Assembly: GCA_036172245.1 (NCBI GenBank)
Contig: JAYWIR010000011.1
Span: forward strand, 1,426,001 to 1,490,000
DNA from: Raillietiella orientalis
Lineage: Eukaryota
Length of the DNA stretch: 64,000 nucleotides
Direction of reading: 5' to 3'
The notes below the pieces were generated by a model that saw nothing but the letters and a program-made list of their open reading frames with translations, made no database searches and was not told the origin of the DNA. The translations under genes were made by a program, and so were the position numbers. This document shows positions 14,240 to 61,700 of the stretch, in pieces. Positions within the stretch are counted from its first letter, which is position 1, and each line of letters begins with the position of its first letter.

Positions 14240-16160
14240 GTACGAATGCTGCGCTCCGTACCAGCACGTCGTGGAGATCATCCTGTCCACAGCCACCTTC
14301 GAGAGGGTAGACTACTGGGACGCCTTCAGGCATGTGATCCAGCAGTACGACGACAGGGACTACACTCAGAGGCGTACAGGGACAATGTTCATCCACAACA
14401 CTCCCTCTCTAAGTTCTGGGAACAGTACGCGAAGCGCTTCCAGGATCGCGACGAGAAGGACATAGGATGGCTGTAGAGACACAGCCTTCAATCCGACATC
14501 TTTTACGTCCACTACGACGGCCGAGAGTGCGGAACCTCGGAGGAGATCCTGGAAGCTTTCCCTCGCCACTACACCGAGCTCTTTCTCAAGAAGAGTCTGG
14601 ACCAGGGATCTTGAGAACGCATCCGTGGCAACCTGAATAAGTGCCTGAGTTTCCGAGAAATCAAGGTAATGCGCGCTGAATTCTCTCTGGACGACATCAG
14701 GACGGCTCTCGAGCAGCTGAGCAAGGACGCGGAGGCGGGTCCCGACAGCGTGTCCGTCACGCACTACAGGCGGCTCCTGCCCTCCTACCCCCGCCTCTTC
14801 CGCCAATTGCTGAACTGCGTCGCCAGGAAACGACGAGTGCCCGCCTCCTTCCACCGATGGATGATGCAGCTACTCTCATAGTGTGGCGGTGGGGACCTCT
14901 TCACGGCCAACCAGTGGAGGCCCATCTAGGTCCTGAACTAGATTGCGAAGTGGATGGCCAAGTTCTGGGCCAGAGGACCACAAGATCGGTGCTTTCTCCG
15001 ACGCAAACGTGCTCTGTGCCTGGCAGGCGCATGTTGGATAACATCAAGTGCGCTGGAGACCATATGGGATACAACGATGTCCTGGGAAACGACCTGGTGC
15101 TGGGCTTCACCGACATCGAGAAAGCCTTCGATTCGGTGGACCACAACATGCTGACGAACATCCTTCGCAAGTCGGCCTCCTGAAGCAGAAATCCTGCAGC
15201 ACGCGGAACGCACCCTCGAAGGATCCAGACTCCGACTGCACTGGAACGGACAGACCACAGAAGACATCAGCATGGAAAGAGGAGTCCGCCAGAGGGACGC
15301 CTTGAGTTCCATGTTGTTCATCATCAATATGGAGGTATTGATTGCCCTCGTGACCAACGAGTGACGTCTTAAAGGCATCACTCTACAAGAAAAATTCACG
15401 AGAACGCACCTGGTCTCATCACACTGAAAGGAGAACGGGATCCAAAGGCATTCCAGCTACATGGAAGGCCTCAGAAATGGCTAAGGGTGCCTCAGAAAAC
15501 AGCTTCCTATCGCCAGTGGATTTAATCCACTAGCGATTGGAACGGTGCTCTGAAGTGACCTGCCACCGGACACTCAGGATAACCACCTAATGTTTTACCA
15601 TGGAGCATCCTGAGTGGATGAAGAATGAAGCTATTCACGAGAAGAAGAGAAGAAATCTGCAGAGCATGTGGTGGCATCGATACAAGACTTCATGTTTTGA
15701 TCTGTCCCACAATGCAAACAGAGTGGCATACCCTGAAAAGGGTTATTGGGCTGCCCAACACCTCAACTATGGCGATCTTGACAGGGATGTTCCAAGGAAA
15801 TGGAACTGTTCCCTGCTATAATCCCATGGTAAGAGTGACCATCACCCTCTTCATCACCTCCATCCTTGTGCGGTGGTAGAAGATGAAGGCCACCAGGAAT
15901 GCCGTATCTCTGAAAGGGCTGATCCAGAAATAGATCGGCATCAGAAACTGCGGAAGAGTCCAGGCCTGGAACTACCGTCACATCCTGAGAAGGATTGAAG
16001 GCAGCATCCAGGCTCAAACGACGCCCAGGTAATCAAGTGCAGCAAACTTTTCAGAGACCCAAAGAAGTACACTTCAAGTGAGCAATAGTGAAGTGAAGTG
16101 CAGTTCTTTTGAAATTTTTATGAATGAGATTGTAGTGTGAATGCAAAAAGAAAAATAAAT
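14240..16160 (+). mobile_element. L1/Tx1-type non-LTR retrotransposon: RT and C-terminal zinc finger, pseudogenised
   Basis: RT domains in order: FSLDDIRTALEQLSKDAEAGPDS, QWRPI*VLN, QTCSVPGRRMLDNI, DIEKAFDSVDH, RGVRQRDALSSMLF. An internal deletion follows, then CRACGGIDTRLHVLICP...W and an A-rich 3' end at ~16145-16160. Confidence 0.9.
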
Positions 16161-19989: not shown

Positions 19990-20678
19990 CACACTTATTC
20001 GGGGTGCCCGTTCGTATCTCACTGGAGGCATGCGATTTCGGGGCATCTTTCTTTGACGTGCTCGGTGGCCTCGCAGTTGATGCAGTACTTGCTCTTCCCG
20101 TAGTACCAGAGGTCGATGGGTTCTCCACCGACCACCACTTTATGGGACAGCCTTAACTCCTTGATGCGCACCACGTCAAGCTCACTAAGGATCCCGTCAA
20201 ATACGCAGAATCTGTTGGGCTTTGCCCAAAGCACGTGGACACTGCCGAATTTGTGAAGTTGCTCCTGTACGACGCTCGGTGACATCAGTACGGTAATGCC
20301 CCTTAGGTGGACCGCGTTAGAGTCGTCCACTGGAACGGGGAAGACCTGGTGGCCTCGACTCGGGGGTCCGCAACAGTCTTCGTGCTAGACACACCTCCTT
20401 GCAGGTCAACTCAGCGTGCTGTCCACGCTCCTGATCGTGATCCAAGTCACGTTCGATCTTTACGGATCCGCTTCGAAGGAACGCGCAGTGCGATCGTCGA
20501 AAACCCTGACTACCTTGTAGACTTCGGCCAAGGCTATGGCCGCTACAGAGGGCGCGGTGACCCCGGCGCTGTATTCCCTCGTCGGAGAGAAGAATGAAGC
20601 TCCGGAGACAGATGCAAGAGACGGTCTTCCGATACCCCCCTGGCTCTTTTTCGTGGTAGATTCAGGCACTTGCGCCAT
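19990..20678 (-). mobile_element. L1/Tx1-type ORF1 (gag-like, CCHC zinc knuckle), pseudogenised
   Basis: ATG at 20678 gives MAQVP...RPSLASV (SYA.V-like). Then VHLRGITVLMSPSVVQEQLHKFGSV...GEPIDLWYYGKSKYCINCEATEHVKERC, a CX2CX4HX4C knuckle. Internal stop and frameshift. Confidence 0.75.
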
Positions 20679-21781
20679 CCACACACCACCGAAGCCCAGC
20701 GACGACACCAAGTAAAGCAGGGGGTCGGGAGCGCTAACATAACACCTCCGAGTACGACCGCAAGTACGACCGCATGGAGAAAGGAATTCCCCTTCTTGTT
20801 GTTGTTTTCGCTTTTCTTCGAAATAAGAGAACGGTCGAGTGTGGAGAACTTCAGCTGCGAGTTCCAAACTTTCCACCTGTCCATACTCATCTTGTCGTAA
20901 TTTGGTTCCCAATTTGAGAAAACAATAATGTGAGGTGGTTGGAAGTACTTGATCGATCCTTGATATTTTGAGGCAAACATGATGCCGTTCTTCATGGTTT
21001 CTATAAACCCATACTGGACGATCTCCTGGTTGTCCCTTGTCAGGTCGACGACGATGATGTGTTCTCCGTTATAAATGTGGGCGGCATCAGCCTTCTTGCA
21101 GCTGTGCATGTATATGGCGCCCTTCTTTAGGTAGAGAAATTTGGCAAATGTGGTTTTGCCGTGTCCACCTTCGGGATCGAAGTACCAGTATATTTTTCTG
21201 GCGTCAGGGTTTGTTCTGATGAGTTTCAGTATGTCCATCTGCCATGTACGAAGTTGGAGGCCAGCCATGGGGTTTGGGTGTAATCTGCTTCTTGTCAATC
21301 GGAAGCATTCTTTGACGAAGTTTATGTTTTTGCTGTAGAACTTCGTATGGTTTTCCAAGATGTCAAGCTCTGTGGCTCCGTTTTTAATTTGCTGGAGAAT
21401 CTGGAAGATATTGGAATTATTATCATTATAAATTATAATTACCATGTCCTGGTAGTCGGTTGTTTCTTTGTGTTGTTGTATGAGGCCGTATGTCCATGCT
21501 TCCTTATCTTCTTTTGTGCAGTACCGTAAGTTGCTTTCGGGTGATCCTTTTGCTCGTTCGAGATGTGCTTTGTCGAACGGCGGTCGTTTGAGGCTTGGCA
21601 AGGTGCGTGGATCACGCAACTGGAAATAGCCTTGCAGGTGAGGTGTTCCTGTTGTAGCTGTTTCTTTGCCAATGACTGCGTAGGTGCATTGGCGTCTGCA
21701 CCATTCTTTTATTTGTTGGAGTTCTTCTTCGAGATAATTGCAGAGCGTGAAACACCAATACAGAAAGTGTCCGTAAGGCAT
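20543..21781 (-). CDS. rep: CRESS virus replication-associated protein (HUH endonuclease + SF3 helicase); viral part 21781-20866, then read-through into flank
   Basis: Motif I WCFTLCN, motif II TPHLQG, motif III YCTK, Walker A DPEGGHGKT, Walker B IIVVDL, motif C VFSN, Arg finger MDRW; no internal stops. Candidate 42-nt intron at 21401-21442. Confidence 0.96.
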   Translation of the reverse strand: MPYGHFLYWCFTLCNYLEEELQQIKEWCRRQCTYAVIGKETATTGTPHLQGYFQLRDPRTLPSLKRPPFDKAHLERAKGSPESNLRYCTKEDKEAWTYGLIQQHKETTDYQDMVIIIYNDNNSNIFQILQQIKNGATELDILENHTKFYSKNINFVKECFRLTRSRLHPNPMAGLQLRTWQMDILKLIRTNPDARKIYWYFDPEGGHGKTTFAKFLYLKKGAIYMHSCKKADAAHIYNGEHIIVVDLTRDNQEIVQYGFIETMKNGIMFASKYQGSIKYFQPPHIIVFSNWEPNYDKMSMDRWKVWNSQLKFSTLDRSLISKKSENNNKKGNSFLHAVVLAVVLGGVMLALPTPCFTWCRRWASVVCGWRKCLNLPRKRARGVSEDRLLHLSPELHSSLRRGNTAPGSPRPL

Positions 21782-21846
21782 GATGTCTTCAGAAATTCTG
21801 TCGAGGTGAGACTGGTGTATGCCTCATGGTGTGGTGACTGCGTAGA

Positions 21847-21882
21847 AGATGCTATCTGGTTAGTATTACCCAGATAGCATCT
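21847..21882 (+). promoter_or_regulatory. Rolling-circle replication origin stem-loop with TAGTATTAC nonanucleotide
   Basis: AGATGCTATCTGG-T-TAGTATTAC-CCAGATAGCATCT: perfect 13-bp stem, nonamer at 21861-21869, lying between the rep and cap starts. Confidence 0.96.
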
Positions 21883-22125
21883 AGCTTATTCGGCAAAACC
21901 TTGGAAATTGTGTCATGTTTCAGTTTTTTATGAGGGTGTCTGGTTAATGTCCGCAGTCGTGAAGGGCTTAGGAATGCGGAACAAGATGTACTTGTCCACG
22001 TGTGCAGGTCGTGGCATGATCCGACCTCGTGGAGGGCTTAGTAAGTCGGATGGCGTGTCTGCCACCAGCCTCAGATGAGAGGGAGGGAGGGGCTCGGTGA
22101 CGTCAGTCTTCGTTGAGTCATCGGG

Positions 22126-23044
22126 GTGGCTGCACGTGGCGGTCGCCGCGCTCGTAAGAGATATGCTGCGAAGTCTCGCGGGTTTGTTGGAGAGCGTAGG
22201 CGTGTAGCTGTTAGCGGCTATTCGACTTGCAAGAAGCGAAGACGTCCGTCGTCGTCGTGTGTTGCGATTATATCGGAGGCCGCGTGGTCGTTTGTCTAGG
22301 GCGAGACGCGTTGTGAAGAGGGATGTAATGTTAAATGCTGTGCATTATTCGTCGTTGCGGTCAGCTGATGGAGATTCTGTAAATTGTTCGTGGATGTTTA
22401 CTTACGTGGAGAACGGATGGACTTTGGCTAGCGTATTGTCTGAGCTAAATTTGTCTGAGTTTGCTCGTTATTATCGTTATGTGCGATTTCGTGGAATGGC
22501 TATGAAGATAGAGCCGATGTCATTAGGTTTGACTATCGGAAATATGGCTGAAGAGTTTGGAATGAAGGTGTCATATCGCAATTTGTTGTTGTATCAGGCG
22601 TCTGCTCAAGGTGAATTTTTTTCGTCGTTGGCTGGTATGCCTTACCATAAAGTGGAGGATGTTATAAGTGGACATAAGGAGACGAGTGGTTGTATGGCTC
22701 GTTATTTCGGTGTACGTGGCATTCGTGTGTACTCGAAGGCTTATGTAAGGAAGGATATGGAATGTTTTGGTGGACAGCTGAAACGTTGGATACGATGCCC
22801 TTGGATAGATTGTGGAGAGGGTACAGGTCTTGATCGAGAGTTGAATTGTACAATGTTTGTTGGTCGTATGCATGTACTGAAGCACATGTCTGGAGTGGAC
22901 ATACCTGATTCGATAAAGGCTAGTTGCCAGTCAGGTGTATGTCCTAAAAACGGCTCGATGACTCAAGGGTACCCAATATTCAGACTGACTCGAACATTCT
23001 ACTTAGAGTTCAAGCATCTGAGAGACCCTTCCTTGTATAATTGA
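22126..23044 (+). CDS. cap: CRESS virus capsid protein (start uncertain; main frame open 22208-23044)
   Basis: Arg-rich N-terminus (VRRRRVLRLYRRPRGRLSRARRVVKR), circovirus-type jelly-roll signature SEFARYYRYVRFRGMAMKIEP and C-terminal TFYLEFK. Position opposite rep fits. A further Arg-rich segment lies in another frame from GTG at 22126. Confidence 0.85.
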
Positions 23045-26000
23045 ATACAGAAAAAACTGTTTCTACCAGGTTTTCCCCTTGCTATCATGGAACGTCATCA
23101 GCAAAATCGCCGGATCAATGCTGAATTGTACTGATTGCGTCAGCAGCATTGAACTTGGAAGAAGAAAGATTCCCTTATGTGAACTGCTTTCCAGAGTGGC
23201 TTCAGTGGATTGATGCAGTTTTTAATGCTTCAGTGCCGCTTTGCAAGATATCTCTTGTAGTAGAAATTTCTCAGTTTTCATCATGACAGGAATTAGCTCA
23301 GTGAAGGAGGGCAGAGCTTGTTTTTTTTTTTTTTTTTCTTCCTCCAAATGAAAACCCAAGGGACTCTTTGTAAGAATTGTCATTTTTTATTTCTGTACCA
23401 ACGATTTCCACATTGTTCAGTTTTCATATGCAGAACTGTAGGAAGCACAGCGGCAGCATTGTATGCACGAGCCAAAAAGTCTCAGGAAATAGGTAGGAAA
23501 TACGACAGCAAATTTCAGCAAATTTCTTTATTTGGAATGAAGATTCCAGTTGTTCATGGAAACAAAGCGCATAAGCTACTGTTTATTCTGTAAACATTTT
23601 GCATTCTAGGGAGTGTCAAGTCACAAGGTACTCTTCCAAAGTAACTTGCCATCTGTCAGCAAACCTAGAAAGAATTCTTGCTAGGTTTGCTGGCAGATGC
23701 TTGGCAATCTGCTTCTGTCATTCTAGATCTTCCAGTGCACCAAAAATAAGGATCGGGCTGAATGTTCTACATTCGGAGATGCTGCACAAACAGGTCTCTT
23801 CGTCCCAATCCACTCAAGAGAGGGGAAAGACATTCCGCAAAGCGTAATGCGCATCGATGTAAAACAAGCATGGAGCACCAGGTAAAGAGGAAACTTGGCT
23901 GTCAAACGAGAGAAGAAGAAGCGCACAGGAGAACGAAAGTGGTCTCTTTTCAGCGGTGAGCAAGTGGCTGTCATCTCGACAGATCCCCCCAAGAGCCCAA
24001 TCCTTGTTCTCATCCACAGCAAAAGTAGCCTCAAACTCAACGAGCCGACTCAGAAACAGAGGCCAACCAGCGGCTCACGAATCACTTGCAACCGAAAGTC
24101 ACCTCGAAGCAAAAGAGGTGGAGGACTAAAAAGGACGAGGGAATGGTCTCGGTCTCATGGATCGCAGGTCACCTTCCAAGTGAAAAACAACATTGTGAGA
24201 AACCCGCATGCATAGGGAAGCACGTCTCACAAATTCCAAGAGAAACTACTGAGAATTTCTTGTTCGTGCTCGAGGCAACCCGAATCTGAATGTTGAGAGC
24301 CGATGCGATGCGTGCATCAAGTGGAGGTCATAGAAGGCGCGATCCGATAACTCAGCGAGATCAGCGCATCCTCCATGAAGGCAAGCACAAGAGTGGGCAG
24401 TCCTGGGTCTTGGCAAGTGATCGACGAGCTCGCCGTCTGCCGTGCAGACAGCGCACGCCCAGAAGAACGCTCCTTCTTTTGAAAGAGTCCATTTTCTGAA
24501 TGATGGAGTGTCTTCATTAGTTTCTTCTCACCATTCATGGTTCAATCCTTCATTCTGGAAACTCGTACTGATAGGTCTATAAATGCTTTTTACTCTTCAT
24601 TGCTATTGTATAATGTTTACAACGGTTTCTTGAAATAGGGGCTTGAAAAATATCGCAATTATTTTCCTGTTTTAATTTCATATTTGTATGCAATATCTCG
24701 TGTAACGACGTGAGCGCAAGGGCGCCGCAGATTTCAAGGCTGAGGGACGCTGTCTTTCAAACTTTGGCCCCATCAGAAACCGAGCTTTGATGGCACCCTA
24801 CTAACGAGTCCCTCGAACAAACCTGCATTTCTTTGCAGCCAGTTCGAAGTCTTAGAGCTCCTTCGCCTTGCAGCAGGTTAGACTTATTTCATAGTACTGT
24901 GAAGAAGTGCGATATCCATTTATTGTGTTCCAGCATAACGGAAGCAGTTCAGCCGTTGTCGCTTCCCTCGGGTGGAATCTTATATCAGATTTTGACATCA
25001 TCAACAGCTTCGATGGTGATGCAAGAGTGAGCTCTTCCCTTCTCTTTCCCCTTTGTTTTATCATCCTTCTGGAACTCAATCCAACAAGGAAAAAAGGAGG
25101 TGGAACATGCCAATCTCTCGGGCTGATATAATCCTTTCATGGCATTCCAGACAACGAATAGATCTTGTTAGCTCAGTGCATGACTTGCGATTTTTGCCTC
25201 TAAATGGAAACACGAAGCATTCGAATTTACACCCATATTAAATTTTCATTCGTTGAATTTCCGTTTGTGAAATCCGAGCTCCTCTTTAGCATACTAATTA
25301 AAAAGAGATCAGTTCCATGGTTCTTGTGTGCCTTTATCCGATGTTGTTTTTGTCGGCTTCCAAGTCTCAAAATTTCTAATTTGTTTGGCTGGTAGCTAAC
25401 TCGAGTGAGTATCCTGGTAGCTCCTCTTCAGTTTTATTTCGTATTTTTTCCCCTTTGTTCATGCTGCAAAATCTGCAGCCTTTTTCCACCTGAGAACCAA
25501 ATACCTGCCGACACATAGCTGCAGGGCACAAGTGCCATTTTCTATGAGTTTCTGACCTATCGGGTTCGAATGCTTGACTTTTCTCGAATAAACCGATCTG
25601 AACGATTTCTTGCCTGAGATTTATTCGAACCTTCCGATGGGATGAAAAGTTGGAATGCACTTGAAAGGAAAAGAAATGCCGCACTGAATTCTTCGGGAGT
25701 TGTTGACATTTGTGCTGTGTTCTTGAAGAAACGGAAGCATACGTGTCGGTGTCGATGACGAAAACAGGCGAGTAATGTAGTACTCATGTCAATCATGCAA
25801 CTTTCATGTTCGTCACCGTTACTGTCCGCTGTAGTGTGGAATTGATGCTTAAAACTGGATCTACTTGGATGAACCCATTTTCAGTTTTCCGATTTTGTGT
25901 ACTTTAATCATGAGCCCATCCAATGTACTCTTCGGTTCCAGTGAAGAAGGCACTTAGCAGTGTTAAAAAGGGACTGTTTGCTGTCTTTGAACGCAAAATT

Positions 26001-28858: not shown

Positions 28859-31733
28859 ATGGCAGACTGGGAAGAGATAAGAAAACTTGCTGCAGACTTC
28901 CAAAGGGCTCAATCATCAGGTCCAACCCAAAAGTAGGTCCACTGTGTTCAAACTTGATGTGACCTTACTGCTAATTAAATGGGGTTTTGCAGGCTATCTG
29001 AAAAAAACTGCATTGAAGTTATAACCAAATTGCAACAGCTGAAGTTGTTAGAAGTATATTTTACTGTTGATGGCAAAGAATATGTGACTCCTAAACAGTT
29101 ATGCAAGGAAATAAGAGATGAAGTATATATTCAAGGTGATCGGAAAGAAAAGTTTTGAAAATGTTTTATGAGTAATGTCCAGGCCGAATCAACATAGTAA
29201 ATTTAGCCAAGACTCTAAATATTGATTTGAGCTGCATTGAAAGTCGTGTACCTGAAATTGTTAAAATGGACCCTAAAGTACACTTTGTTTTGGGACAGTT
29301 TGTGCATGATTGTTATTTGGATCGCATTTCTGAAGAAATTAATGAAAAGCTCCAACAAGAAGGCCACTTGTTAATAACTGACCTTGTCAAATTATATGAT
29401 TTTCCACTGGATTTTGTTCAGCAGGTTTGCATCCACTGATACTCATCTGGGGAACTTTCAGTTTAAAAATCGTACAGATGCTAAATAGCAGATTGAATCT
29501 AATTGTGCAAGGCCGAGTGGATTCCTCTTCTAACATCATCTTTACAGAAGCTCATTTATCCAGAAGTCAGGCTCATATCCTTGGTAGTTTGTCAGCTGTA
29601 ACTCGTCCAATTTCTTGTGCATATCTTATAAATTTGTATCATTTCCAAGAAAGGATTTTTTTTAGTAAGACCTCAAAATATAATTCAACATTTAATCCAT
29701 GTTATCTTCAGATATTGTAGATGAGCTGATTTCTTCTGGTAAATTAGCTGGCAGCTTAGTAGGAGGTCGTCAGTCAGTGAAAGCTGTATATGTTCCCGAG
29801 TTATATTCTCGTGCACAATCTGAATGGGTACTGCACAATCTTCTGCAGAATGGTTGTGTAGGCAAGTATTTGTTTTCAAAGTGTGAAAAGGATGGTATTT
29901 ACAGTGTATGTCCAGAATACAGTGCTTTGGGGAAACTGGGAGTCAGTGATCCAGAAGCTTTCATCAAAAGGTTGAATCCTGGGAAGGACATAGTTTATTT
30001 GTCATGGTGTTGTCTAGGCAGCTCTTTGCTGGTTCAAGTTGAAGCCTGCATTGAAGAGGTTGCCAATGAAGGTAGTGCTTGGCTTGATGTTCTGGTAAGC
30101 ATGAAGATTAGCAGTGTTATCCTAAGAAATTTTGTAGCCTGTTTTCCCAGCATCTTTCACTCCTAAGGATGTTGAGAATGTCATCAAGCATGTGCTTCTA
30201 CATATGCAAGTGGGAGCTCAGGTTGATCTTTATCAGCATTCCATTGTGGTGAACAAATCAGTTCTTGCGGAAATCTTTAAGAGATTGGAAAATGGGATGC
30301 AGGAGAGAGCTATGAAAGTGAGTTCTGTTTAAAAATTGCAAATCTGCTGATACCTGTCAAGGTAGCTCAACACAATCAACTGTACAGCAGTCAGTCTCAT
30401 GGAAAAGCACAGAAACCACAAAAGGTGGTAGAAAAATCCAAAACAGATAAGAAAGAAGAAAGACGTCGCCGAGCCATTACAGGTCATCAGGGAGGCCATC
30501 AAGGAGGAAACACAAAGGTCAGTAACTTTAGTGAATGAATAGTATTTTTGAAATTATAGTGTGCTATTATGGCTTTTCATTTTAGGGTAGAGAATCTAAG
30601 ACGAAATCAACGAAAAAGAAGACATCACATGAAATTCAAGATACTGAGGAAGAGTTAGTAAATGAAAATGTTCCATCTTTATTTACTTATATGTCAGTTG
30701 ATGAACTGCATGCCTTTTTGAAAGAGGAAACTGATTTATGTGATGCTCCAGAAAATGTTCTTCATGATGTCTCTCACACTATGTGGCCTTCTTTGTGTGC
30801 TACTTATCAAATTGTAGCCCGAGAAGCAGCTGAAGCTGCTTTATCTGCAAGTGTTGAAAAGCGACGTCAGCAACATTATCAGCTTCAAGAGCGACTGAAT
30901 ACCCAAGTTGCTATGCTGCATCTATACAAAAAAGGAATTGAGCAATTTGAGAGTGATCAACAACAGAAAGAGCTAACTTTGTACCTTTTGCGCAATGTGG
31001 GTGCAGATCTAGTGGGTTTGATTTTGCTACATTTGTCTGAAGCAGAAGCATTAGCCCTCCCTAACTCAGAGGTATTAATTCTCACTTACATTTCTTGTTT
31101 AATGTTTTCACATAAGCAACGTACCAGACTTCTTCATCAGCTTGATCCTGGACTTCAGAGTGATCTTCTCAAAATGCTTAAATGCACCTGCTTAGAGGAA
31201 TTTTTTCCTCTGCTGAATCTTTTTCTTGAAAAACCTGAGTGTGACTTGATGCTGAAAAAAATGGATCAGAGGAGAAACAAGTACGTGTGCCCTAAAAGAC
31301 TCACTTCATACAGTGTTTCTTGATAGAGAGATCTTGCAGGATCATGTAAGAGGTTTACAGGAACAACTTGAACATTCACATGAGGGACCAAATATTTTGC
31401 TTCTTTCATGCCTTCTCCTGTTCCAGTTCTATACAGGATTCATGTTGTGTGCTTCTGGGAAATTCGTTACTAATATTTTACATTTGCTAAACTCATTCAT
31501 ACCAGAAGATGTTTATCAGCTTCTGGAAGACTGTCGAGGTTAGTAACAATAATTAAAAACAAGCATTGTGTTTGTTGATAGAAATTGTAATCAAATGTGT
31601 TATGGAACAAGGAGATCCAAATAGCCATAGTGTTTCTGAAGAACAGCTACTTCGCCTGTCTTCCAGAGTGAGGACAACTGTGATTAATCTTGTGAAATCT
31701 GGAGATACTGAGAAAGCTGATAGCCAAAGATAG
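28859..31733 (+). CDS. UFL1: E3 UFM1-protein ligase 1, 12 exons, ~774 aa
   Basis: N-terminus MADWEEIRKLAADFQRAQ...KLSEKNCIEV is the UFL1 signature. Exons 28859-28932, 28993-29135, 29183-29424, 29478-29664, 29712-29861, 29916-30094, 30138-30317, 30362-30517, 30586-31071, 31117-31280, 31327-31538, 31582-31733 sum to 2325 nt in frame and end in TAG. Confidence 0.95.
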
Positions 31734-45392: not shown

Positions 45393-46250
45393 AAACACGC
45401 GTGCTTATCCTACACAGTTTATACTTTAACGTGCATGGCTGCTTTGCTATTTAGTAACAAACACGTTATTGACAGTAATACTATCGGAACAGATGCATTT
45501 ATTAAGATTCAGTGATATAAATTTTATTGATTAAATTAATAAGCCGCTTATTGCGTTGTTGATATATATTGATTTCTTGCAATGTTTAATATATATGTCA
45601 ATACACATATGAATCTTTAATATGTATATATTAAAGATTACAAGCAATGGCATTTATTTTTAATATATGTATTATTTATTTATATGAAAATTAATATATA
45701 TCATGAAGATTATTAAAAAATAAATATATGTGCTTATTATAGATATCCATATATATTAAGTGAATATCGAATTAAAAAAAAAAAAATGATTGCGACGAAA
45801 ATAGTGGGAAAAAAATAACAATTTGATATCCATGTATTCGTTACGTGTATATTTCTCATATATAGAAACATATCCATACAAATATATACATATACATATA
45901 TTGCATGTATATATAAATACACACATACATATATAGAAATACACATGCACCTGCATTTCTATGTATGTATGTGTGTGTGTGTGTGTAAAGATATATATAT
46001 ATATATATATGTAAATATCGATCTATTTAATAGGCATATGTAGTTATTTTTTATAACCTTTAACGCATCTGTCAGCAATATAATCAACAGCTTATTCATT
46101 TTATTAATAAAATGTGTGTCAATGAGTCTTAATAAATATGTTTATTCCGATAATATTGCTGCCGATCATGTGTATGCTAATAAATATGAATGACTCAGTA
46201 CCTGAAAGTACATTTGTACGCTGATCTCTGTAGAACAAGCAAACATGTTT
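45393..46250. mobile_element. AT-rich MITE-like element, copy 2, with internal microsatellites
   Basis: Ends AAACACGCGTGCTTATCCTACA / TGTAGAACAAGCAAACATGTTT are imperfect inverted repeats. Abrupt AT-rich island in GC-rich DNA; shares internal blocks with 32291-32631. Confidence 0.65.
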
Positions 46251-58452: not shown

Positions 58453-58770
58453 CTGCGGAAGCCGGTGTCCAGCCCCTCCATCCCCGCGTCTATGAAGGAG
58501 CGGAAGCGGGAGAGCAGCGCAGAGGATGCCGGCGCCTCGCTAGTCGGAGTCCGCGCGGAGCACCCCGACTCACGTGAGGAGAGGAAGCAGCAGCAGCAGC
58601 AGGGACGGGCGAAGGCGACCAAGCCGAACATCGGGTACCGTCTGGGCAGGCGCAAGAACCTCTTCGAGAAGCGGAAGAGGATCAGCGACTACGCCCTGGT
58701 GATGGGCATGTTCGGCATCGTCGTCATGGTCGTCGAGAACGAGCTGTCCAGCGCAGGCGTCTACAGCAAG
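58453..58770 (+). CDS. SK: Small-conductance Ca2+-activated K+ channel exon (pre-S1/S1)
   Basis: [15 protein letters not shown]...[50 protein letters not shown]|gtaggc is the KCNN/SK signature. Confidence 0.95.
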
Positions 58771-61700
58771 GTAGGCCGGGTGGCGGCGCTGCCGCTCGCT
58801 CCATGTCCCCCCCTCTACACGGAGCTGCCGTTGCCGAACGGCTGCTCCCGGCCTTCCCGGTCAAGGGAGAGCATTCCTCCCTCCCTCCCTCCTTCCCTCA
58901 TTTCCTCCCTCCCTCCTGCAGGCCATTCGCCGCCCGACCTCTCCCGGGTCTGAGCGCGGCGAACAGCGGGGCGCGTCGCCCTTCCCGCCAACCCCACGCG
59001 CTTGCGCGGAACCCGAGGCAGGCGGGGAGGCCGATCCCGGCCGTCTGAGCCTTTAGTGTTCGTCGTCGTCGCCGCCCCGCCCTTTTGCCCCGCGACCACA
59101 TCAGCCCGCAGCTTTCCGCGGTGGGACGCCCTCGAGGCGCGGCTCGCATCTCGCCGGCCGATCGATCTCCACGGCCGATCGCCGGTGCGGGCCGGCTGGT
59201 CTATCTTCCCGCGCGATGCGCGCGCGCCCTGCGAGGCGGCGCGCCTTCGCTCGCGGAGACGGGAGGCGTTTACCACTGCGCGCACCGAATCCGTTCCTAC
59301 TCTTCCTGTTTTCGTTGCGTCACGTGGCGAAGGGAGGAGGGCAAGCAAAACCGCGAAACCATTCTCCGCCCTCCTCCTCCTTCCCTCCCCCCTCCACGTT
59401 CTTCTTCCCCCATCGAGGGGTAAAAAAAAAAAAAATGGAAGAAAAAGAAAAGGAAGGAAGGAATTCCGCTCACGAGAAAAGCGAAGGGGCGAAATTCCTC
59501 TCTCATTTTTCTCCTCCCCTCGCTTTTTTCCCAGCAAAGCGATCACCCCTTTTGCGAATGAAGTCGACCGCCGCACGTGACCGCGCGCGGGCAGAGAAGA
59601 GGAGTGAGGAGGAAGAGGAGGAGGAGGAAGAGCAGAGCGACGTAGAGGAGGGGACTTCACCTTGCGAAGGAAACGAGCAGCTCTCCGAGCAGCATTTCCA
59701 CCCTCCCTCCCCCTCCTTTGGAGTCTGTTGGCAAGGGAGGAAAAGCCAGGAAGACCCCAAGACGAATTGCTATCTGGCTGAGGTTCCCGAACCAACGAAA
59801 CGGAACGCCGCCATGCGTCCTGCTCTTCCCCGCGGATGTGGTAATGACGAGGAGGAGGAAGCAGGCGGGCGATCGAGATGGCGCAGAAGAGTTCGGCAAA
59901 TACGAAGGGTCGTGGGGAGAGAGAGAGAGCTCCGTGCTAGTTCTCCCCCCTCCCTCCCTCCTCTTCCTCTTCCTCCCTCTCAGGGCGGACGTCCGGGCGC
60001 CCGACAGGAAACCTTCCACCTGCGCCCCTTCGCTTACTGCGCGCGGGGAGAAAAGAAATGCTGCGAAGGGGGAGGAGATAGAGGAGCACGCCAGCCGGCC
60101 CCCGACCTTCCCCGGCCGTGGCGCTCGCACCCCGCGGGCATCGCGGCGCGATCGGTTTTTTGCAACCTCGTCGAGGGACCCCGTCGTTAAGAAGGTTTTC
60201 CAGTCCTTGACAACGGAGACTGCTGCAACAATGATCAGCGTGGTTGGAAACCAACTCTCAACAATAACGGAGTCTACCATTGGTATTGTTGCTGCCGGGG
60301 CCGTGAACGGTGGGGGGCAACCATTGTTGCCGTTCCGCCGGCGCGCGTCATCCGGCCACGTACGGCCCCGATCCCTGCAGCTGTGCCGTGAGGTGGGCAC
60401 CTATCAAGTAGGTCCAGGGGAGTGGAGCACGAGCCACGGTCACATGACTGAGAAGGTGCCGCTAGCCCAGCGAGGTTCCCATCGAAAACCCGGGAGGTAA
60501 AACACGGGGTCAGTAGGATGGGCCCAGAGCTCTTGCGCAGCGGGTGGGTGGGGGAAATGAAGGAGGAAAGGAAAGGGGTGGCCGCGATAGGGATCATCTC
60601 TCCGAACGGCTTGGGGATGCAAGGGAGACGAGGGACACTCGTCAGGGAGGGGGGAACCTGCATGGAGCGAACACGTGCAGAGGAAAACGGGATGGATGGA
60701 AAGCGTGCCGGTTCCGTGGCAACGGACCCGCTACCGCGCGTCGTCTGTCTGTTCAGTCGGCCGAACAGACAGACGCCGGGCGGACTGCGCCCCCTCCACG
60801 TTGTCGCTCGGAGGCTCCACCTGTACCGCTCTTCCTTCGTTCCGCCCCTCTCACCCCGTGGTCTCTCCCTCTCCGAGCTCCTCCCTCGTCGCATCACCTC
60901 TCAGGACCACTCGCCATGGCAACGCCCCGAAGGCTCCTCCCGTTTCCCTGACGAGGGGCGGTCCAGCCTCCCGTCGGTCGAGGGGAACGTTGCGACCTCC
61001 CTCGTCGGGAGGGAGACTGATCGTCGGGCAGAGACAGGGAGGAAAGGACTCCGACGCTCCCCCTGGGACTCCCGAGGTACCGCCACTCCTACTCTGGGGA
61101 AGATGGAGAAAGAGAGAGAGAGCGGAGGGACATCGTGTCATTCCGCTGCGGCTCCTCCCGCTTTTCTCCGGAAACCCCCGACGTTTTCCCCCTCTCCCTG
61201 GGGATCCATCAGCAGCGGCAGAGGAGGGAGAGCGAGTTCTTCCCGAGTCGTCCGCACGCGTCCTGCCTTTGGCGTCACCCCCTGGCACAAGGACGGAGGT
61301 GGCCTACAGGAAGGACGCGCGGACGCTCTGTTCCACTTTCCCTTTCCCCTCCTCTTCCGCCGCCTTTTTTTTCTGGGGGGGAGGTTCTCTGAGAAAGCAG
61401 GGAGTGGAAGGAAGAGAAAAGGGGTGGAAGAGGAGGGTCGAGCAGCAGCTGAAGAGCGGAGGAACAGAGCAAACGAGTAGGGGATGGAAAGGAAGGAGGA
61501 GGAAGAGGATCTCTTTCACGAGCTGCCGGCTGGTCACCAAGGCAGACCCATGGTCGTTTCGCAGCGCGTGCTCACTCTCAGCAGCCTCCGGCGGCGGGAC
61601 CGCGACTCCGCACCCGAGGGGGAAGCATGGAAGGAGCACTCTGCCAGCGCTCCTCTGGGACATTCGGAGTCACAGGGTCGCCCGAGAAGCAGTGAAGACG

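Follow-up and report, generated by a model that had tools for sequence, protein, structure and literature searches.

A probable endogenous, near-complete copy of an undescribed CRESS-DNA virus in an arthropod chromosome

In the assembly as given, a block of about 2.3 kb carrying rep, an origin of replication and what is probably a coat gene lies within an arthropod chromosome. The window, i.e. the whole stretch of 64,000 nucleotides analysed, contains no N (count 0), and the block is located 20 kb and 41 kb from its two ends, bordered on both sides, again without N, by host-like sequence including arthropod genes and retroelement traces. CRESS-DNA viruses are circular single-stranded DNA viruses encoding Rep, and the earlier note had read positions 20866-23058 as an apparently complete genome of this kind. 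The stop-free Rep with its motifs, the perfect stem-loop and the long open plus-strand frame were all confirmed.

The Rep reading frame is on the minus strand and runs from an ATG at 21781 to 20543 over 412 codons with no internal stop, as had been claimed; its virus-derived part spans 20795..21781 (329 codons), and the frame stays open into the flank to 20543. Rep matched Pfam Viral_Rep (E 9.7e-16) and, weakly, RNA_helicase (19.8 bits, cut-off 21.5), and a profile from 10 relatives matched it at E 3.5e-103. The best solved-structure matches were PDB chains named Rep or Replicase by their depositors (E 2.7e-14 to 1.5e-9), which we take to be circovirus proteins. The full rolling-circle and helicase motif set is present in this one protein, all on the minus strand: the HUH-type endonuclease motifs I (CFTLCNY, 21734-21754), II (PHLQG, 21629-21643) and III (YCTKE, 21509-21523), each aligned to invariant columns in the 10 relatives, and a superfamily 3 (SF3) helicase with Walker A (GGHGKT, 21152-21169), Walker B (IIVVDL, 21041-21058) and motif C (VFSN, 20912-20923), in which the same alignment shows G205, G208, K209 and N290 as invariant and D246 as almost so. 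Walker B and motif C (VVDL and VFSN) presumably differ from the circovirus consensus. Helitron proteins carry a Pif1-type helicase, and a Helitron was rejected on the basis of the SF3 helicase of the block Rep. Likeness to other Reps stops at DRWKVW (~20864) and the next in-frame stop is found only at 20543; Rep is therefore without a stop codon of its own inside 20866-23058 and reads on into the flank. Six-frame translation of the window gave one Rep-like ORF only, and no further copies of the block or of its flanks were found within the window. A candidate 42-nt intron (GT...AG, 21401..21442, minus strand), with a GC content of 19% versus 44% for Rep, begins on a codon boundary and matches the site of a 15-residue insertion relative to the 10 relatives. 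Its unspliced state had been put forward as evidence of DNA-level integration, but this is a weak argument because the candidate intron is in frame and stop-free.

An origin-type stem-loop (21847..21882, plus strand) combines a perfect 13-bp stem with a 10-nt loop, TTAGTATTAC, and presents the nonamer TAGTATTAC at 21861-21869, on the strand opposite to Rep and the same as the cap frame; both the perfection of the stem and the placement of the nonamer on the cap-coding strand thus stand as first described. The fold (-12.9 kcal/mol, z = -4.7) was equalled by none of 200 shuffles. Two copies of TAGTATTAC occur in the window against 0.05 expected; the second (45475-45483) was dismissed as a second element, since the sequence around it is AT-rich and simple and neither a stem-loop nor a Rep lies nearby. 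The rest of the intergenic region (21883..22162) contains two imperfect 31-nt direct repeats (21950-21980 and 22020-22050), which are 77% alike and have inverted ends in each copy, and the fold of 21940-22060 (z = -3.4) was again matched in 0/200 shuffles. Cycloviruses carry the nonamer on the cap-coding strand. Scanning viral contigs with a single Rep protein returned 3 distant loci only and an alignment-based scan returned 80, with contigs of 1.7-4.4 kb at 78 of them; the nonamer-on-cap-strand orientation was present in 26/80 and the opposite one in 34/80. Ambisense genes with the nonamer on the cap strand are a Cyclovirus feature that is present in the block but not genus-specific.

The putative Cap frame (22163..23044, plus strand) begins with an ATG at 22163 and continues through an in-frame TAG (22205-22207), an arginine-rich stretch (22208-22327) and the next ATG (22328) to a stop at 23042-23044. 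The long open cap frame of the earlier note was upheld in so far as 22208-23044 is open for 278 codons, a length open in 0/20,000 shuffles, and is coding-like, but it is not cleanly open from an ATG, since the TAG severs the upstream ATG at 22163 and the first ATG inside the open stretch is that at 22328. The codon-position composition test gave p = 0.003 for this frame versus 0.21-0.86 in 7 flank controls, and the frame is really coding. Its product is probably the coat (capsid) protein. The language-model (atlas) features were nearest to ssDNA-virus capsid clusters (score 0.94), and Pfam Circo_capsid (PF02443) was reached at E 0.15 and 12.7 bits, below the cut-off of 36.2. No match at E <= 0.001 was found among 1.84 billion representatives, the best phmmer hit among 602 ORFs of 83 related contigs had an E of only 0.22, the best against profiles of 8 cap clusters built from related contigs an E of only 0.09, and a single-sequence AlphaFold2 model had a pLDDT of 31, too low for a usable fold. 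The in-frame TAG need not reflect decay, as translation from an unconventional start, or splicing, could avoid it. Another arginine-rich frame (22117-22299) was weighed as the genuine start of cap, but it has no ATG and would also require a frameshift, and the one-stop reading was preferred.

At least 2,193 nt separate the point where Rep similarity ends from the stop of cap, and the boundaries of the block more likely lie at ~20782/20795 and 23067/23080 than at 20866-23058. There, an imperfect 13-nt direct repeat (11/13 identical) has its left copy at 20782..20794, proposed as the left junction or as microhomology, and its right copy at 23068..23080, the proposed right junction. The copies bracket 2,286 nt, and no other pair of 13-mers across the two end windows matches better, but the repeat by itself is not significant (equalled in 21/300 shuffles). 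In the Rep frame the left copy reads K-G-N-S and the right copy side KGKTW*, with a stop one codon beyond the right copy, at a distance of 18 nt from the stop of cap. With the repeat fixing the register, this Rep-frame stop falls at 23063-23065, on the minus strand of the spacer that follows the cap stop (23045..23067), and it was sought only after the repeat had been found. The gap between the two convergent stops in relatives ranges from -19 to 578 nt (51 pairs) and is <=15 nt in 9/51 pairs. The GC content falls from ~0.6 to ~0.45 near 20770, the proposed left junction has an exact 12-nt tandem duplication 8 nt away, and no terminal redundancy was found between the block ends, where the best local score (25, a T-rich run) was within the shuffle range. 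The stop after the right copy in the Rep frame suggests that the circle was opened within the last Rep codons and that about one full unit is present. It is proposed that a double-stranded replicative circle was opened once, in the last few codons of Rep and opposite the origin, and that illegitimate or microhomology-guided repair, rather than Rep nicking at the nonamer, then linked it to the chromosome. The result would be about one unit (~2,286 nt) in circularly permuted order, i.e. Rep tail, Rep, origin, Cap and a short spacer with the displaced stop of Rep; the permutation is deduced from the repeat and the in-register stop in what is seen as a linear integrated copy. The earlier description of a complete genome is weakened, since it depends on the imperfect repeat and on the in-register stop.

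The flanks bear on the host. Exons of UFL1 lie 6.6 kb and those of an SK channel 35 kb from the block, the SK exon being 90-94% identical to insect proteins whereas a database search with a UFL1 exon gave no hit, and CpG observed/expected in the flanks is ~0.95; the genes and the CpG content point to an arthropod, in agreement with the animal host first proposed. An ORF outside the virus (20022..20384, minus strand) encodes a retroelement-like CCHC zinc knuckle (weak Pfam zinc-knuckle match, E 0.0067), its atlas features being nearest to arthropod CCHC and PRE_C2HC clusters (0.91-0.93). The surrounding sequence had been described as transposons full of stops, for which this ORF and one sub-threshold reverse-transcriptase trace offer some weak support, but 0/81 flank ORFs reached a Pfam cut-off. 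An episomal or contaminating CRESS genome wrongly joined into an arthropod scaffold would account for two genes and an origin that are nearly untouched, for the single copy and for a composition differing from that of the flanks. Such an assembly artefact is nevertheless rather unlikely, given that the block is flanked on either side by unique sequence resembling that of the host, with no N, and consists of one permuted unit without the overlapping ends usual for an assembled circle. Furthermore, a Rep without its stop and a TAG before the arginine-rich start of cap would be unexpected in an abundant replicating virus, and the 12-nt tandem duplication is what a repair scar might leave.

The locus is best read, with reasonable though not full confidence, as an endogenous near-complete copy of an undescribed CRESS-DNA virus that was inserted at the DNA level into an arthropod nuclear chromosome. 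The earlier claim of DNA-level integration is supported by the presence of two divergent genes together with the origin and by a breakpoint located across the circle from that origin. A retroposed copy, in which a LINE would have reverse-transcribed a Rep-strand transcript that ran around the circle for more than one genome length and the 13-nt repeat would be the target-site duplication, could draw on the direct repeat itself, on an A-rich stretch of the Rep strand (20795-20822) adjoining its left copy, and on the nearby LINE-like CCHC ORF and reverse-transcriptase trace. However, the A-rich stretch belongs to the open Rep frame and does not form a poly(A) tail. Two mismatches among the 13 positions of the repeat, next to ~600 intact codons, are a misfit for an initially identical duplication, and the AT-rich candidate intron, the origin and the antisense cap are all retained, making this route extremely improbable.

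The database searches and Rep phylogeny proposed in the earlier note were run and revealed no near-identical described virus. Identity of Rep to any database protein was <=39% over most of its length (34-37% for the best full-length matches, the 39% maximum being that of the tree alignment), and in a tree of 109 Reps, drawn without named reference taxa, the window Rep had an end branch of 0.79 versus a median of 0.38 and joined no well-supported clade. Together with a Cap that has no match among the representatives searched, this bears out the claim of an undescribed virus, and no exogenous counterpart was found in protein-database and viral-contig searches. As in Cyclovirus and Circovirus (Circoviridae), divergent genes flank a stem-loop with TAGTATTAC, and Rep has HUH motifs and an SF3 helicase; unlike these genera, the block measures at least 2.19 kb (2.29 kb in the model) against ~1.8-2.1 kb (PMC6069186), its Cap falls below the circovirus capsid family cut-off (PF02443), and its Rep stands on a long lone branch at <=39% identity. 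That most endogenous CRESS elements are rep fragments, as had been stated at the outset, agrees with PMC6069186 and PMC6372831, where most endogenous circoviral elements are rep-only. Whole-genome insertion of CRESS viruses is not unprecedented, being known in fish and protists (PMC6372831, PMC7493932). Cyprinid fish germlines harbour tandem complete circovirus genomes (Dennis et al. 2019, PMC6372831), which like the block extend beyond rep; these are multi-copy tandem arrays that date back >39 million years and share ~70% identity with a known virus, whereas here one unit is present, the host is an arthropod and no relative is known. Entamoeba and Giardia contain integrated whole CRESS genomes (Kinsella et al. 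2020, PMC7493932), where Rep and Cap likewise occur together inside host contigs and provided the basis for host assignment; in contrast to the block, the hosts are protists, and matching exogenous viruses exist at 73-84% nucleotide identity. Cyclovirus-like rep elements of arthropods and helminths (Dennis et al. 2018, PMC6069186; Rosario et al. 2018, PMC6186406) are also CRESS-derived and located in invertebrate chromosomes, some with rep intact. The elements reported in 2018 in PMC6069186 are, however, all rep-derived with no cap, and a tapeworm element (PMC6186406) has a near-full rep fused in frame to a partial cap, whereas the block retains a cap frame of full length in addition to rep and the origin.

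The intact state of both Rep and the stem-loop makes a young insertion probable. The recent date given in the earlier note has this intactness as its whole basis, and host selection is an alternative cause of intact ORFs. An older insertion could have been kept by the host as a co-opted Rep or as a locus giving rise to small RNAs directed at related viruses. Co-option has been proposed for intact, expressed rep elements in an ant and a fish (PMC6069186, PMC6372831), in Entamoeba CRESS elements are matched by small RNAs (PMC7493932), and Rep is open throughout its 412 codons while the cap frame carries a stop. Selection on Rep alone would not explain a perfect non-coding stem-loop or a cap frame otherwise open over 278 codons, and such retention is considered unlikely. 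On the favoured reading of a fairly recent insertion, the copy has probably become defective or inert by now, because an in-frame stop precedes the arginine-rich start of the coat frame, because Rep is present in a linear form without its stop, and because a single copy of the origin is present. It is very unlikely that the locus is instead an active, germline-carried CRESS genome, in which Rep, expressed from its own promoter, would act on the adjacent chromosomal origin of a vertically inherited, latent provirus-like copy, with splicing or an unconventional start circumventing the apparent stop in cap.

Most CRESS viruses are known from metagenomes only and have no assigned host. The near-complete copy described here links a very divergent lineage, including a coat gene without a recognisable relative, to an arthropod host, and it supplies a full gene set with which the exogenous virus can be searched for. 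Rep-mediated nicking is the route of entry assumed in PMC7493932; a breakpoint opposite the origin bears on how such genomes enter the germline, and would favour host end-joining over Rep-mediated nicking.

The Rep gene, which would direct rolling-circle replication, runs on the minus strand from an ATG at 21781 to 20543 and is open for 412 codons, which bears out the earlier note's description of a rep free of internal stops. Rep residues 1-91 match Pfam Viral_Rep (E 9.7e-16), and residues 203-290 show a weak similarity to the SF3-type Pfam family RNA_helicase (19.8 bits, below the cut-off of 21.5). The endonuclease motifs CFTLCNY, PHLQG and YCTKE and the helicase motifs GGHGKT, IIVVDL and VFSN are all present, in columns that are invariant or nearly invariant in an alignment with ten database relatives. 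A profile built from these ten relatives only recovered the Rep ORF at E 3.5e-103 and no second Rep-like frame better than E 9.9 in the six frames of the window, and the nearest solved structures are chains named Rep or Replicase by their depositors (E 2.7e-14 to 1.5e-9). Similarity to Rep ends at DRWKVW (about 20864), the frame continuing beyond that point without a stop. Within Rep, a 42-nt GT...AG segment (21401-21442, minus strand), in frame and set on a codon boundary, has a GC content of 19% vs 44% for Rep and falls where the protein carries 15 residues absent from the ten relatives. Its length is short for an intron; introns in Rep of arthropod CRESS genomes are reported in PMC6186406, and genuine splicing of this candidate is a tentative possibility.

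An origin-type stem-loop (21847-21882, on the strand opposite Rep) lies 65 nt upstream of the Rep ATG, the perfect stem-loop of the earlier note, with a 13-bp stem free of mismatches and the loop TTAGTATTAC; its folding energy of -12.9 kcal/mol (z = -4.7) was equalled by 0/200 shuffles. The nonamer (21861-21869) was found twice in the window, with 0.05 occurrences expected; the second exact copy, TAGTATTAC at 45475-45483 (minus strand), lies in an AT-rich simple repeat with no stem-loop or Rep-like frame nearby and is attributed to chance. The origin nonamer shares the plus strand with the coat frame, as the earlier note had it, an orientation found in 26 of 80 relatives, with the other in 34 and no stem-loop found in 20. 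An exact 11-nt direct repeat, TGACTGCGTAG, occurs inside rep (21673-21683) and abutting the stem-loop (21835-21845), and could be a Rep-binding repeat or a product of chance. Between the genes there are also two imperfect 31-nt direct repeats (21950-21980 and 22020-22050), each with inverted ends, in a region that folds better than 200/200 shuffles (z = -3.4).

The putative coat frame (22208-23044, plus strand) is open for 278 codons. It is coding sequence, since none of 20,000 shuffles of the interval stayed open and its nucleotide composition differs between codon positions (p = 0.003; p = 0.21-0.86 in seven flank controls). Arginine makes up 37% of its first 40 codons, a likeness to the coat proteins of ssDNA viruses. 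These 40 codons contain no ATG; an in-frame ATG upstream (22163) is followed 14 codons on by a TAG (22205-22207) and the next ATG (22328) is beyond the arginine-rich part, so that translation begun at an AUG would have to read through a stop to include this start. The long open cap frame described earlier was thus recovered, but cut off from its upstream ATG, and this arrangement could mean that the frame has begun to decay, that its start is unconventional or that splicing is involved. Another arginine-rich frame, 22117-22299, also lacks an ATG. The coat protein had no relatives at E ≤ 0.001 when 1.84 billion representatives were searched; the 602 ORFs on 83 related viral contigs, and eight profiles of the coat clusters in those contigs, gave none either. 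Pfam Circo_capsid reached only E 0.15, and single-sequence AlphaFold2 gave no usable fold (pLDDT 31). The sole positive lead came from an Atlas feature search, in which ssDNA-virus capsid clusters were nearest (0.94-0.92). Together with position, size and the arginine-rich start, this makes a capsid the likely product of the frame.

Among 153 matches from 5.8 billion protein clusters, the top full-length Rep identity was 34-37% (E 2e-50) and the highest identity, 46%, covered 41% of Rep only; the closest of 80 IMG/VR loci was 35% identical. A tree of 109 Reps gave the window Rep an end branch of 0.79 against a median of 0.38 and placed it in no supported clade. The proposal of a probably undescribed virus therefore holds, on this low Rep identity and a coat protein without relatives. 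The virus differs from Circoviridae in two of the features tested, genome size (a 2.29-kb unit) and coat family, and is for these reasons left unclassified among CRESS viruses.

An imperfect 13-nt direct repeat (20782-20794 and 23068-23080; 11/13 identical, 2,286 nt apart) is proposed to mark the junctions. No other 13-mers in the two end windows match as well, but 21/300 shuffles equalled it, and no long redundancy is common to both ends. The left copy reads K-G-N-S in the Rep frame, which then continues, and the minus strand of the right copy, read in that register, gives K-G-K-T-W-stop, so that stops for Rep and cap would lie 18 nt apart; the stop-to-stop gap in 51 convergent gene pairs of relatives ranges from -19 to 578 nt (≤15 nt in nine pairs). 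GC drops near 20770 from about 0.6 to about 0.45, and the 2.29-kb unit is in keeping with contig sizes of relatives. We lean modestly towards a viral circle opened within the last codons of Rep with roughly one full unit present, and no further, because the in-register stop was sought only after the repeat had been found. Of the apparently complete genome claimed before, both genes and the origin are in place, but a full unit depends on this short repeat and the stop in register with it. An exact 12-nt tandem duplication (AGTACGACCGCA twice, 20751-20774), 8 nt left of the left copy, could be an end-joining or repair scar.

Two divergent genes, the origin and an AT-rich stretch left unspliced all lie in the block, which points to insertion of the double-stranded replicative form at the DNA level. 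The earlier argument for such entry stands as regards the divergent genes and retained origin, its intron part being weak because the candidate is in frame and stop-free. A retroposed read-around transcript, for which the A-rich stretch adjoining the left repeat copy might be taken as a tail, is an unlikely source, this stretch being no tail but part of the open Rep frame. Rep-mediated entry is assumed for CRESS integrations in PMC7493932; here the circle would have opened across from the origin rather than at the nonamer, a position that favours illegitimate or microhomology-guided joining by the host. The repeat copies differ at 2/13 positions despite about 600 intact codons, and virus/host microhomology is therefore a better fit than a target-site duplication.

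About 4-5% of substitutions create stops, and indels add further. At such rates a 334-codon Rep would rarely be open beyond a few percent neutral divergence, and because Rep is still open, the insertion is, as a rough inference, young or its Rep is under selection. Of the recent whole-genome insertion proposed earlier, preservation, approximate unit length and novelty were upheld, but youth and Rep selection both fit.

The flanks carry two long exons of UFL1 (E3 UFM1-protein ligase 1; 29696-31323, plus strand; Pfam E 2e-8 and 1e-18), divergent enough that a word-based search for longer relatives gave no match, and an exon of a small-conductance calcium-activated potassium (SK) channel (58597-58776, plus strand), with a likely further exon at about 62.2 kb (plus strand) recognised by eye only. 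Insect proteins match the first SK exon at 90-94% identity, and a tick protein matches it at 78%. The 30 kb around the SK exons has 58-69% GC and many long chance ORFs. CpG observed/expected is about 0.9-0.95 at 51-59% GC (1-20500 and 33000-64000), with no vertebrate-type depletion; the GC is unusually high for an arthropod. Based on the SK identities and a CpG level unlike that of vertebrates, the host sequence is that of an arthropod, nearest to insects. The flanking transposons described before are reduced to traces: none of 81 flank ORFs passed a Pfam cut-off, the only transposon-like domain among them being a degenerate reverse transcriptase (14680-15180, plus strand; RVT_1 E 0.008, below cut-off), and one CCHC ORF has arthropod retroelement-like features.

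Endogenous circoviral elements are mostly rep-only according to PMC6069186 and PMC6372831, which support, for such elements, the earlier statement that most endogenous CRESS elements are rep fragments. Complete circovirus genomes in tandem are described in cyprinid fish (PMC6372831), whole integrated CRESS genomes in Entamoeba and Giardia (PMC7493932) and a tapeworm element with rep and partial cap (PMC6186406). A non-exhaustive search of main texts turned up no arthropod element in which rep, origin and cap are kept together as a single unit. Judged from sequence and with the integration as assembled, the block is a real, well-preserved CRESS insertion of about one genome unit, representing an undescribed lineage in an arthropod chromosome.
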